Shown piece after piece: positions 134-40,575 of a DNA stretch of 64,000 bases. Positions within the stretch are counted from its first letter, which is position 1, and each line of letters opens with the position of its first letter. The translations under genes and the position numbers were made by a program. The DNA lies in contig CAVXJS010000021.1 in NCBI GenBank assembly GCA_963762145.1, positions 1,152,001 to 1,216,000 on the forward strand, read 5' to 3'. The notes under the pieces were generated by a model that saw only the letters and a list, made by a program, of their open reading frames with translations, had not been told where the DNA came from and searched no databases. This stretch comes from an uncultured Candidatus Rokubacteria bacterium (GTDB taxonomy: Bacteria > Methylomirabilota > Methylomirabilia > Rokubacteriales > CSP1-6).

Positions 134-149
134 TGCAACTGGCCTGCCA
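134..149 (-). promoter_or_regulatory. sigma54 -24/-12 promoter
   Basis: TGGCAGGCCAGTTGCA (GG-N10-GC) upstream of CBS gene. Confidence 0.75.
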
Positions 150-232
150 GACGCCGGCCGCCGCGACGGCTTGGCAAACGAGACCTTAGCGCCCGGCCCG
201 GATGAGGCACCCGGACCCGTGGGCCGGGCCCC

Positions 233-268
233 GGGGCACGGATGTCCCAACTGGGGCACGGTGTCCCT
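233..268. promoter_or_regulatory. Tandem putative enhancer (UAS) sites
   Basis: GGGG-CACGGATG-TCCC-AACT-GGGG-CACGGTGT-CCCT. Confidence 0.6.
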
Positions 269-622
269 CGCGATGCCGACGACGCGCGGCCCGCTGGACG
301 TCGTCTCCGTTGGTCGTTACGGGGACTCGAGCACGGGGCTCGTAGCTTGCTCCCGCAACGTGAGCTGCAACGTGCCGGGGGGCGCTGCTCGGGGCGGCGG
401 TACTGCTGGCGCGCTGCGTACGGGGCGAATCGCCTGGGACAAGTTCGGCGTCACACCAGCGGAGAGAGAACCGGGGGGAGCCATAGCCATTGACCGAGTA
501 CTGCGGTCCTTGATGATCCCGCGCTCAAGGAGGCGGCCAGAGCGGCGGATCGCCAGTGGGCCGTCAGATAGATCGCGGACGAGATCTTCGTGGGCCTCCG
601 CGGGTGCGGAGGGTGCCCCGGG

Positions 623-1171
623 TCACCAGGAGCGGACGCGGCCGACGTCGACGTGGATGAAGTTCGAGTTCGGGTAGAAACCGACCCCGCCGGCCCCGAG
701 CGACCTCGCGGCATCGCGCACTGCCACGAGCGGCCGGCCCGGTACCCGGATATCCACCGCCATGCCCGAGACGTGGAGGCTCGTCGAGGCGACCCCGCGG
801 GTGGAAGCGGCGAGCCGGGCATTCGTCTCTGGCGAGCGATAGCCCGAGATGACCTCGAAAGCTTCGCGCGTCTCCAGGCGATCGCGAAGCGTGCCGAGCA
901 CGTCGAGCAGCCGGCGGTCGATCGGGTGTACCGTGTCGCTGCGGTGATCGCGAAGCAGCCGGTCGATCTCGGCCAGCCCGTCGCGCACGTACCGGCCGGC
1001 CGCCCAGTACGTCGCGCGCACGAACTCGCCGGTGTGCAGGCTCCGCAGAGCCAGCACGCGCGCGTCGGCCGCGGCGGCGCGGCGGGCCGGAACCAGCAAG
1101 CCCGCGACGCTCACCAGGCCTAACCGCAAGGCGCGCCGCCGCGCCGCGCCGTGTTCATCCATTCCGGTCAT
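623..1171 (-). CDS. YcbK/DUF882 (peptidase M15A, MepK-like) with Tat-like signal
   Basis: HTGE, ISGYRSP, SLH..G.AVD, FIHVDVG.VRSW motifs; ATG overlaps upstream stop. Confidence 0.9.
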   Translation of the reverse strand: MTGMDEHGAARRRALRLGLVSVAGLLVPARRAAAADARVLALRSLHTGEFVRATYWAAGRYVRDGLAEIDRLLRDHRSDTVHPIDRRLLDVLGTLRDRLETREAFEVISGYRSPETNARLAASTRGVASTSLHVSGMAVDIRVPGRPLVAVRDAARSLGAGGVGFYPNSNFIHVDVGRVRSW

Positions 1172-2880
1172 CCTGATACCTCTTCTCGGGACGTCGGACA
1201 GCCGCCCATCGCGCGGGCCAGATCCCGACCCGGAGCGCTCCGCTCCGCGGCCAGCGCCGCGGCGAGGCGCGCATCGCGCCCATAGACGTCGTCCCGGAAC
1301 TGCGCGAGACCGTCCGCCCCCACGAACGCCGTCCAGTAGAGTATGTACACAGGCAACGGCCTGGCAACCGGGATCCGGGGCGAGCCGCCGCCCGCGATGG
1401 CCTCCGCCAGGCGGTCCGGGGTCCACCGCCCGGTCCCGTCGTCCAGGAGGAGGACGGCGAGCTCGGCGGCCCGCTCCACCCGGATGCAGCCGTGGCTGGC
1501 CGTCCGCACCGAGCGCGCGAACAACCCCCGCGCCGGGGTGTCGTGCAGGTATACGTCGAAGCGATTGGGCACGTCGAACTTGATCCGGCCGAGGGGGTTG
1601 TCCGGTCCAGGCTGCTGCTGCAGCCGGAACGGAAACGCCTCGGCCGAGACCATGGACCAGTCGACCGCGAGACCGAACGGATCGCTCTCGCGCCGATCCA
1701 CGATGACGATGTCGTTCTCGGCCAGGTAGCGACGGTTCTCGCGGAGCCGGGGCAGGATCTCCCGTGCCGCGATCGAGGTCGGCAGGTTCCACTTCGGATT
1801 CAGCACGACCGCGTCGAGACGGGCCTGCACCACCGGCGTCCGATGCTGGAGGTCGCCCACGACGACGCGCGAGGCCAGCACGGTCCGGTCGTCCTCGACG
1901 ACCCGCAGCGTGGCATCGGCCGCATTCACGGTGACGTAACGCGGGCCGAGATCGCGCGGAAGCCAGCGCCAACGCTCCAGGTTCAGCGTGATCTGCCGGA
2001 TCCGATCGGAGACCGGAACGTTCATCGCGCGGACGGTCGCCTCGCCCACGATCCCGTCGGCGGCGAGCCCGTGACGCTCCTGAAACCGTCGCACGGCCTG
2101 CTCGAGCCGCTCATCGAAGTGGGTGGCGGCTCGCAACCCGATCTCGTCCTCGACCGCGAGTCGAGCCCGGACGGCGGCGACGCGGAGGTCGTCGTCTCCC
2201 GGCCTGAGCAGCGCCCCCGGAGGGACGCGCGGCCAGTCACTCCGGGCCGCCACCTCTCGATACCGCCGCAGCACCGCGACGAGGCGTCCGTAGTCCTTCG
2301 CCGGCGGGGGAAGAGACGCCAGCAGCGCGCGAAACATCACCGGCTCGCGGACGCCCCGGGCTAGAGCCGCCACCGCGTCGAACGGTGCCGCGGGAATCCC
2401 CCAGTCCGGATCGCGGCGCGCGGGCGGCACCCGGCCGACCCGGACATCGCGCGCGTAGCCCAGGAACGCGGCGGTCAGCAGCAGGTCGAGCTCATCGGTA
2501 TGCTCGCCGTTCGCGCTCGCCTGGCGGCCTCGGATCGCCTCGAGATGGTAGCGCGTGGGGTCGAGTCCGTGCGGCTCGGCGGTGACCAGTGCCCGGAGGA
2601 GCGCCGCCGCACGATCGGGCCCGCCGTCGCGCGCGTCCCACGCTGGGGCGAAATCCCGTGGCTGGTAGAATCGCGCGAGCACTCGCGGATCGAGCGACTG
2701 CCCGTCGATGCGCAGCCCGCCCGGCCGATCCAGGAGCTCGCGGATGCGCTGGCTCGTGGAGGCGGGGGCCGCCTCCACCACCGGGCCCCCGATCGAGACG
2801 GCACAGAGCACGGCGCTCGCGATCGCCGCCACGCGGCGGCGGAGTCGCCAGCCGGGCATCCACTCCGTGGCGGGTCTCAC
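1168..2880 (-). CDS. L,D-transpeptidase, YcbB/LdtD family
   Basis: PG-binding domain ([10 protein letters not shown]), VYLHDTP, SHGCIRV catalytic motif. Confidence 0.92.
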
Positions 2881-40418: not shown

Positions 40419-40427
40419 CCAGTCCGT

Positions 40428-40463
40428 GGGGCGCGGTCGTCCCAGGTGAGGCGTCGTCGCCCT
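40428..40463. promoter_or_regulatory. Tandem putative UAS upstream of nirK
   Basis: GGGG-CGCGGTCG-TCCC-AGGT-GAGG-CGTCGTCG-CCCT. Confidence 0.6.
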
Positions 40464-40479
40464 TCTCGAGGGTAGCCCT

Positions 40480-40497
40480 CTATGACGGGCGTCATAC
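40480..40497. promoter_or_regulatory. Second Crp/Fnr box upstream of nirK
   Basis: CTATGAC-GGGC-GTCATAC. Confidence 0.7.
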
Positions 40498-40559
40498 CGC
40501 GGGGCGAGTAACCAGGCGCATCTTCACGTTATAGGGCGGTCCGGCGGCAGCGTGGTTAC

Positions 40560-40575
40560 GGGCATCAGCGTTGCA
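40560..40575 (+). promoter_or_regulatory. sigma54 promoter of nirK operon
   Basis: GGGCATCAGCGTTGCA. Confidence 0.7.

Follow-up and report, generated by a model that had tools for sequence, protein, structure and literature searches.

The window analysed here is a stretch of 64,000 nucleotides (positions 1152001-1216000 of contig C21) from the genome of a soil Rokubacteria-like (Methylomirabilota) bacterium. It covers the right-hand 41 kb of a 72-kb gene island, in which about 18-23 sigma-54 promoters are predicted to drive some 70 genes. The island is delimited by motif-bearing promoter boxes, which span window positions -31,661 to 40,574 (C21 ~1,120,300-1,192,600). An 18-bp palindrome recurs upstream of these promoters, and a gene on the minus strand (30215..31615) encodes a response-regulator enhancer-binding protein (EBP) that is proposed to be their activator. 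The assembly comprises 6.26 Mb in 25 contigs and is 88% complete, and the G+C content is about 0.69. The DNA sequencing runs that contain the stretch are soil and rhizosphere metagenomes, and the closest named relative, as judged by the activator gene, is a Candidatus Rokubacteria metagenome-assembled genome (MAG) with 71% identity. Rokubacteria are abundant in soil, uncultured and endowed with large genomes.

The island encodes at least eight universal stress proteins (USPs), four Hsp20 proteins, six CBS-pair proteins identified by Pfam and two CBS-like proteins identified by tblastn, two BON proteins and a PNPOx-like protein. Maintenance functions are represented by Lon, a Cpn60-family chaperonin, a ribosome hibernation factor, DksA and an isoaspartyl methyltransferase, and transport by two P-type ATPases and a formate/nitrite transporter. 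Genes for energy metabolism at low oxygen encode an ADP-forming acetyl-CoA synthetase, PEP synthase/PPDK, alcohol dehydrogenase, a PFK fragment and glutamate dehydrogenase. The handling of nitrogen oxides is represented by NirK, which passes its equivalog cut-off (337.8 vs 296.3 bits), and by a NOR-like oxidase encoded with ScdA and DUF2249. Signalling proteins include a kinase-like protein with APH and two P-loop domains, a lone receiver protein and a Crp/Fnr regulator. Gene families were assigned by Pfam, and some assignments rest on tblastn similarity; when a CBS protein and the PNPOx-like protein were compared with PDB sequences, all matches were at family level only, Rv2626c being one CBS match among many. 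To the left of the window (C21:1120339-1152000, loci L101 and L102), at least eight further strong motif-bearing sigma-54 boxes accompany genes for USPs, Hsp20, CBS proteins, the second P-type ATPase, PPDK/PEP synthase, ADP-forming acetyl-CoA synthetase, DksA, the isoaspartyl methyltransferase and a PAS kinase. Judged from the sequences, this gene content points to a regulon for survival of hypoxia or dormancy.

Sigma-54 boxes and the 18-bp palindrome

An earlier note on this DNA listed thirteen GG-N10-GC boxes in the window. All of them are found where it placed them, each ahead of a ribosome-binding site and a start codon. Eight (at 135, 7813, 9541, 11384, 18322, 22671, 30105 and 37468) match TGGCAC-N5-TTGC with no or one mismatch. 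In these eight strong boxes GG and GC are 10 bp apart, and each box is intergenic and faces a gene; rpoN is present in the genome in a single copy. The window contains 10 boxes with at most one mismatch against 3.53 +/- 1.82 expected, a number reached by none of 100 shuffles, and the remaining two (22082 on the plus and 24069 on the minus strand) lie within genes. The other five of the thirteen (9750, 11521, 16317, 31801 and 40560) have two mismatches and are assigned from context only. Genome-wide, TGGCAC-N5-TTGC has 57 exact matches, 53 of them intergenic, and 232 matches with one mismatch, of which 168 are intergenic. The sigma-54 activator domain PF00158 has 27 matches in the genome, 21 of them full-length. 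The box counts, the one rpoN gene and the 27 activator-domain matches therefore indicate that sigma-54 is heavily used in this organism.

The palindrome was recovered by an unbiased search. All combinations of two 4-mers and a gap were enumerated, without a prior, in the regions upstream of the 13 boxes (-30 to -170) and in 6740 intergenic pieces from elsewhere in the genome. The top-ranking dyads, TGGG-N9-CCCC and GGGC-N8-CCCA, are present in 6 of the 13 regions versus 37 of the 6740 pieces (p 5e-11); two pairs of the regions occupy common intergenic space, so that only 11 are independent. The motif is the 18-bp palindrome TGGGGC-N6-GCCCCA. Sites within one mismatch of it number six in the window, all intergenic and all upstream of the boxes listed in the earlier note. 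The genome has 36 such sites, of which 14 are intergenic, and 11 of these 14 fall within C21:1121584-1192427. At every one of the 11, a sigma-54-like box is found at a distance of 42-115 bp.

The looser pattern in which the motif was first described, G(G/A)GG-N8-(C/T)CCC, allows motif and geometry to be weighed against the view that they are by-products of 70% G+C and of site picking by eye. Two chance-level counts over the whole window speak for that view: the pattern occurs 30 times versus 27.4 expected, and boxes with two mismatches occur 45 times versus 53 expected. The placement of the pattern, however, is strongly non-random. At 35-135 bp upstream, the pattern is found at 6 of the 8 strong boxes of the window and at all 8 strong boxes in the 32 kb to its left, a hold-out unseen when the pattern was defined (Fisher p 1.7e-12 for this flank against the boxes elsewhere). 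Elsewhere in the genome it is found at 3 of 206 boxes, and it occurs in 182 of 10171 random intergenic 100-nt windows (1.8%). The hold-out, the concentration of 11 of the 14 best intergenic sites of 6.26 Mb within 71 kb, and a footprint whose blocks are conserved across 11 genomes while the bases separating them vary already refute the by-product view, which has virtually no probability left.

A scoring matrix gives the same picture. Scores of at least 10 in the gap range 40-125 bp are reached at 15 of the 16 island boxes with at most one mismatch, a count that is partly circular because the matrix was trained on 11 island sites, versus 1 of 206 boxes elsewhere and 0.18% of 9710 random intergenic windows. 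The dyad search and the fixed-pattern hold-out are free of this circularity. The sole box outside the island that scores for the motif is a sigma-54-like box in a threefold direct repeat of ~14 bp at C9:660241-660290 (L103:5241-5290), and this is probably chance. The C9 satellite site (659061 and 660241) was rejected as a member of the regulon because its box is part of a short sequence repeated three times, in DNA with little coding character.

The distance between site and promoter is given as the gap that separates the end of the 18-mer from the T of TGGCAC. For the strongest sites this gap is 70-73 bp at nine promoters, which is the main mode, 62-65 bp at five, 50-52 bp at three, 79-82 bp at three and 115 bp at one. 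Eleven of the twelve gaps reported earlier (83, 63, 72, 63, 52, 55, 64, 53, 50, 53 and 96) were reproduced, and the twelfth, a 53, could not be placed. Clustering in steps of about one helical turn, which had also been noticed, is seen as a Rayleigh peak at a 10.5-bp period (R 0.70, p ~6e-5, n = 20), to which the main mode contributes much. With the main mode set aside, the other 11 gaps still deviate from its phase by just 0.13 turn versus 0.255 expected (p 0.0018). Gaps of 50-52, 62-65, 70-73 and 79-82 bp all place the motif on one face of the helix.

The sites also occur in tandem, as had been described. The best flanking score beside the primary sites peaks at an offset of 19 bp, where its mean over 14 primary sites is -4.0, versus -10.7 to -27.6 at the other offsets between 12 and 45 bp. 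From this sharp peak follows the rule that a strong copy is paired with a weak one at a distance of 19 bp. The sites, at about -80 to -125, share the features of upstream activating sequences, namely dyad symmetry, a frequent tandem arrangement, a location some 70-150 bp upstream, conservation and restriction to the regulon.

At about half of the promoters a third element lies between the sites and the box. With the island promoters aligned on the -24 box, sequences like CAA(C/G)-N4-(C/T)TGAAT begin 29-30 nt ahead of the T of TGGCAC at 9 of the 16 island boxes, and CAA(C/G)-type elements are found 39-40 nt upstream at two more. Elsewhere CAA[CG] occurs at 29-30 nt at 16 of 206 boxes (p 4.7e-6 for the difference from the island), which is still above the per-position background, and A+T content peaks at the same place genome-wide. 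Such a fixed A+T-rich position may be a general feature of the sigma-54 promoters of this organism. The island element resembles the complement of the IHF consensus, WATCAANNNNTTR; strict matches to YAA-N4-YTGAWH are found at just 2 of the 16 boxes. Examples lie 29-30 nt upstream of the -24 box at 16347-16360, 18353-18366, 22702-22715, 37438-37451 and 30136-30149. Box 16317 has the IHF-like sequence CAACGTCTTGAAT 29 nt upstream. The element at 30136..30149 on the minus strand (CAAC-N4 followed by a T-rich end) starts 30 nt upstream of the T, and its AA and GTTT columns are invariant in the 11-genome alignment.

The first gene of the operon behind box 7813 (7484..7792, minus strand) encodes a DNA-bending protein of the IHF/HU family (PF00216, 2.2e-29). 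Its best NCBIfam match is IHF-beta, at 92.1 bits and below the cut-off of 115. An IHF/HU-family gene at the head of a regulon operon could provide feed-forward for promoter bending.

The proposed activator gene and a candidate sensor kinase

The protein encoded at 30215..31615 consists of a receiver domain (PF00072, 5e-32), a sigma-54 AAA+ domain (PF00158, 1.8e-72, positions 1-167 of 168) and a C-terminal helix-turn-helix (HTH) of the HTH_8 type (PF02954, 1.1e-5, 25.5 bits vs a cut-off of 22). Its translation contains DFKMPGMDG, the Asp of which would be the phospho-acceptor by analogy with the family, a Walker A motif GESGTGKE and GAFTGA. A receiver, an AAA+ domain with GAFTGA and a Fis-type HTH together characterise it as a response-regulator EBP. 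It scores below every NCBIfam equivalog cut-off, including those of AtoC (472.9 vs 714, its best match), NtrC (440.8 vs 558.6), PEP_resp_reg (434.6 vs 502.6) and NorR (326.3 vs 476) as well as those of NtrX, GlrR and ZraR.

Orthologues of the activator, with at least 58% identity, are cleanly separated from paralogues, which have at most 51%. Of the 40 relatives compared, all from the same order, 25 have an orthologue, and one further case is ambiguous. Past the stop codon of the activator gene, 11 genomes show the distal site, the proximal site, about 25 variable bases, a conserved AA...GTTT element, the -24/-12 box and the USP operon, and the downstream box TGGCA..GT.GC is invariant. Box and motif occur together at 15 of the 20 orthologue loci fetched and at locus L021 of the Rokubacteria MAG, which gives 16 of 21. 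At paralogue loci from other phyla (79 loci, 829 kb), none of 59 boxes has the motif. The C-terminal HTH is nearly constant (AAKxAGxDRKTxHRL) among orthologues down to 58% overall identity, and it is unlike the HTHs of the other activators of this genome. Raw motif counts in the 40 relatives were discarded as evidence, being too weak, too dependent on MAG completeness and mostly chance matches in coding DNA; in family f1, 13 genomes with the orthologue have 452 forward vs 253 control matches, and 11 genomes without it have 303 vs 236.

We infer that the local activator binds the palindrome. Co-location, conserved linkage and the distinct HTH give indirect support to this assignment, which the earlier note had made for the NtrC-family gene. 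The palindrome could instead be bound by another of the ~21 EBPs encoded elsewhere, with the local activator serving just the neighbouring USP operon or something else. Such an arrangement gains some credit from the 21 full-length EBP matches in the genome, from an activator assignment that draws on co-location and conservation only, and from the 48 kb that separate the activator gene from its likely kinase. However, the activator is the sole EBP in the island, the next ones on the contig (C21:209017 and C21:141718) being more than 900 kb away. The motif accompanies the orthologue and is missing near paralogues, whose HTH sequences differ, and outside the island just 1 of 206 boxes bears it by matrix score. 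Control by a distant EBP is therefore unlikely.

A gene for a CHASE3-PAS-PAS-HisKA-HATPase kinase lies in the left part of the island (C21:1132656-1134809; window -19,344 to -17,191), divergent from a USP promoter. In G002, a homologue with 66% identity to this kinase is encoded immediately ahead of the activator orthologue and in the same orientation. The arrangement recurs in GWA2_70_23, where the homologue has 48% identity; in G007 it lies 6 kb from the activator orthologue. The second PAS domain (PAS2) of the kinase matches the haem domains of FixL (E 2.9e-15 to 2e-13), with RERH aligned to RSRH and thereby the proximal, haem-liganding histidine of FixL to a histidine of PAS2. The kinase does not reach the NCBIfam FixL equivalog cut-off (187.7 vs 850 bits), and its best NCBIfam match is AtoS. 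This FixL-like PAS kinase is likely to be the sensor for the activator.

Layout of the individual promoters

The leftmost box of the window (135..149, minus strand, one mismatch) stands before a CBS-like gene that runs off the left end, and its enhancer sites lie at 232-249 and 252-269 (gap 82). Box 7813..7827 (minus strand, one mismatch) precedes an operon for the IHF/HU-like protein, a CBS protein, a P-loop protein, Hsp20, Lon, a YkuD transpeptidase and an M15 peptidase; a site with one mismatch at 7890-7907 (gap 62) is followed by a weak one at 7909-7926. An exact box at 9541..9555 on the minus strand is found before a gene of unknown function (121 aa) and an AIR-synthase-related gene. It has its enhancer site (9627..9644) in common with the divergent, weak sigma-54-like box 9750..9764 (plus strand, two mismatches, context only) before a DUF4015 glycosyl-hydrolase gene, the gaps being 71 and 105. 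A CBS gene is preceded by the exact box 11384..11398 (minus strand) with tandem sites at 11461-11478 and 11480-11497 (gaps 62 and 81). On the plus strand a doubtful box with two mismatches and CTGC at -12 (11521..11535) is located before an epimerase gene.

Hsp20 and triple-BON genes follow box 16317..16331 (minus strand, two mismatches), whose sites are a weak one at 16383-16400 and one with a single mismatch at 16402-16419 (gap 70). The exact box 18322..18336 on the same strand precedes genes for a BON protein, two small membrane proteins and the PNPOx-like protein, and has a weak site at 18391-18408 and a site with one mismatch at 18410-18427 (gap 73). Box 22671..22685 (minus strand, one mismatch) stands before the genes for the hibernation factor (S30AE), the Cpn60-family chaperonin, a CBS protein and an HhH protein. 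Its tandem sites (22749..22785, gaps 63 and 82) lie within the 3' end of a P-type ATPase gene.

The exact box 30105..30119 on the minus strand is that of the USP-USP-kinase-REC-CBS operon next to the activator gene. Its proximal (30172-30189) and distal (30191-30208) sites are 19 bp apart, with gaps of 52 and 71, and start 7 bp past the stop codon of the activator gene; both blocks are conserved in the 11-genome alignment. This conserved USP operon encodes a 735-aa protein (26915-29122, minus strand) that joins an APH-like phosphotransferase to two P-loop domains like those of APS kinase and AAA_33. Next in the operon come the lone receiver (26529-26918), which might act as a phosphate sink, and a CBS protein.

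Three boxes on the plus strand lie at the right end of the island. Box 31801..31815 (two mismatches; sites 31713-31730 and 31734-31751, gap 70) precedes a small ORF and the gene for an SNF-family transporter. Between this transporter and the Crp/NOR cluster, window positions 33500-36200 have a lower G+C content (0.62-0.65) and few confident ORFs. Box 37468..37482 (one mismatch) has a weak site at 37375-37392 and a second site at 37398-37415 (gap 52), and stands before genes for an unknown secreted protein, a ScdA-like protein, DUF2249/TusA, a COX1-like (NO-reductase-like) protein and an FeS-assembly protein. Box 40560..40574 (two mismatches), before the genes for the copper nitrite reductase NirK and a cytochrome c, has a site with one mismatch at 40427-40444 and another at 40447-40464 (gaps 115 and 95). 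The Crp/Fnr-family regulator gene (36644-37351, minus strand) is divergent from these ScdA/DUF2249/NOR-like and NirK operons (37468-41683). The NOR-like and NirK operons also bear the sigma-54 box and the motif, so that dual control is possible.

A possible survival regulon and its relation to known systems

Sigma-54 promoters need an EBP and are silent without their activator. We consider it probable that some 20 sigma-54 promoters with a phased common motif, which make up a 72-kb stress and low-oxygen island, are driven by the local activator via the PAS kinase. Each promoter combines, at a fixed geometry, the -24/-12 box with a strong 18-bp palindrome that in most cases is accompanied by a weaker copy at 19 bp. 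Around half of the promoters also have an A/T-rich IHF-like element, which begins 29-30 nt before the T. The island PAS kinase, with its FixL-haem-like second PAS domain, would phosphorylate the receiver domain of the local activator. Activator dimers would then fill the strong and weak sites and form an AAA+ ring in its active state. DNA bending at the IHF-like element would deliver the ring to the closed sigma-54 complex, and ATP hydrolysis would open the promoter. The inducing signal is probably low oxygen, NO or redox state.

Several observations weigh against this interpretation, in addition to the chance-level counts over the whole window, the partly circular matrix scores and the distance of the kinase gene mentioned above. 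At the threshold used, box and motif are missing from 5 of the 21 orthologue loci (L007, L010, L015, L016 and L017), some of which are just 4-11 kb long. By eye, no sigma-54 box with the right spacing is seen for the activator gene itself on the minus strand of 31616-31712. Box 11521 is doubtful as a sigma-54 promoter because the nearest motif copies end just 23 and 42 bp upstream. The kinase of this genome carries a CHASE3 domain in addition to the domains of its counterparts at L014 (G002:C57) and L021 (GWA2_70_23), and the arginine that contacts bound O2 in FixL is absent from the aligned column of PAS2. No RNA runs are listed that contain window positions 28000-32500. Genes were called with a purpose-built caller based on codon usage (5744 genes, 80.6% coding), with uncertain start codons; every intergenic label rests on these calls, and box 30105, which fell within an over-extended ORF, was reassigned as intergenic by hand. 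Finally, the relatives compared are kin and not independent samples.

A more far-reaching reading is put forward only tentatively. Rokubacteria may run a DosR-type survival programme via sigma-54, in which a FixL-like haem-PAS kinase signals to one EBP and this EBP to ~20 promoters. The programme might comprise USPs, Hsp20, CBS and BON proteins, the hibernation factor, P-type ATPases, fermentative ATP supply and NirK/NOR. Its operator grammar of 18-bp GGG-N8-CCC dyads in strong and weak tandems might have converged on that of DevR/OsdR despite a different DNA-binding fold and sigma factor, and it might supply its own IHF-like bender for the conserved site at ~-55. If true, a soil bacterium would possess a dormancy switch of the all-or-none kind, because sigma-54 promoters are silent without the activator.

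The mechanism is that of a textbook two-component EBP/sigma-54 system, whereas the motif, the regulon and the organism are new. What is gained is therefore a regulon with its motif, and not a principle that was unknown before. The analysis offers a candidate wiring diagram, with sensor kinase, activator, 18-bp site, IHF-like element and ~20 promoters, of what is seemingly a low-oxygen or dormancy response. The compact island with its strict geometry is also a natural data set on how enhancer distance and phasing are constrained at sigma-54 promoters.

NtrC at glnAp2 is the textbook EBP system with tandem sites and an IHF bend. Like EBPs of the NtrC/AtoC type, the island activator combines a receiver, an AAA+ domain with GAFTGA and a Fis-type HTH. 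Tandem palindromes phased with the -24/-12 promoter, an IHF-like element between them and a probable PAS kinase partner are further points of likeness. In contrast to such systems, which control a few scattered operons, the island has about 20 promoters packed together, and its targets are stress and hypoxia genes. Unlike AtoC or NtrC proper, the activator stays below the named equivalog cut-offs. The island motif differs from the motifs known for NtrC, NifA, GlrR, AtoC and NorR. The earlier note did not recognise it as a described one, and the literature found by searches on sigma-54, USP and Rokubacteria themes, as far as it was accessible, contains no description of it. By title or abstract, searches pairing sigma-54 or RpoN with universal stress protein, Hsp20, hibernation or low oxygen yielded nothing relevant, and a search pairing Rokubacteria with sigma-54 found no paper.

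The gene content invites comparison with regulons outside the sigma-54 world, for which the accessible parts of the papers cited here were used. DevR/DosR of M. tuberculosis and OsdR of Streptomyces coelicolor exert two-component control over USPs, heat-shock and redox genes near the regulator gene (PMC3177182, PMC5069765). USPs, small heat-shock proteins and redox or anaerobic genes are likewise clustered by the regulator gene in the island, a correspondence at family level only. DevR contacts GGGACT in each half-site (PMC3177182), the OsdR consensus is AGGGCCGATCGGCCCT (PMC5069765), and Dev boxes require helical phasing (PMC3177182, PMC5069765). Like the DevR/OsdR boxes, the island motif is 18 bp long, has GGG-N8-CCC outer triplets in register, occurs as a conserved and a weak box and is phased. 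The copies are 19 bp apart in the island versus 21 bp in Dev boxes. DevR and OsdR are of the NarL/LuxR type and act at non-sigma-54 promoters from boxes at about -40 to -65, whereas the island has an AAA+ EBP, sigma-54 promoters and sites further upstream.

These likenesses raise the question whether the palindrome is the operator of a non-EBP regulator, DevR/DosR-like or another dimeric factor, that modulates the sigma-54 promoters, with the EBP working from different sites or from solution. The outer triplets, the 18-bp length and the strong and weak tandem, which recall Dev boxes and the OsdR consensus (PMC3177182, PMC5069765), as well as gene content like that of the DevR regulon, speak for such an operator. 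None of the genome's 8 GerE matches lies in the island, the nearest on the contig being more than 700 kb away (C21:420241), and because no GerE-type regulator is there the resemblance to DevR boxes is read as convergence or chance, not membership. Sites at -80 to -125 that are phased to the -24 box, with an IHF-like site between, have the layout of enhancers, and the motif abuts an EBP gene in 11 genomes. An EBP is in any case needed at sigma-54 promoters, as is well established. A non-EBP operator is thus unlikely, and enhancer sites of the local activator remain the preferred interpretation.

In D. vulgaris, the sigma-54 regulome has been delineated by the same type of inference, from EBP genes co-located with conserved sigma-54 promoters and an upstream palindrome (PMC4641369). 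The term 'universal stress' does not occur in the accessible text of that paper, in which the island motif itself was not searched for (PMC4641369). The lxa locus of Burkholderia cenocepacia is a low-oxygen island of ~50 genes with a palindromic motif at 17 intergenic points (PMC3721108). Like lxa, the island holds USPs, a cation ATPase, a protease and metabolic genes under one recurring short palindrome. The lxa motif is Anr/Fnr-like (TGA-N6-TCA) and served by CRP-family regulators (PMC3721108), whereas the island relies on sigma-54 and probably on the local EBP. The gene set shared by the mycobacterial DosR regulon and the Burkholderia lxa locus may thus also sit under a third, mechanistically different control.

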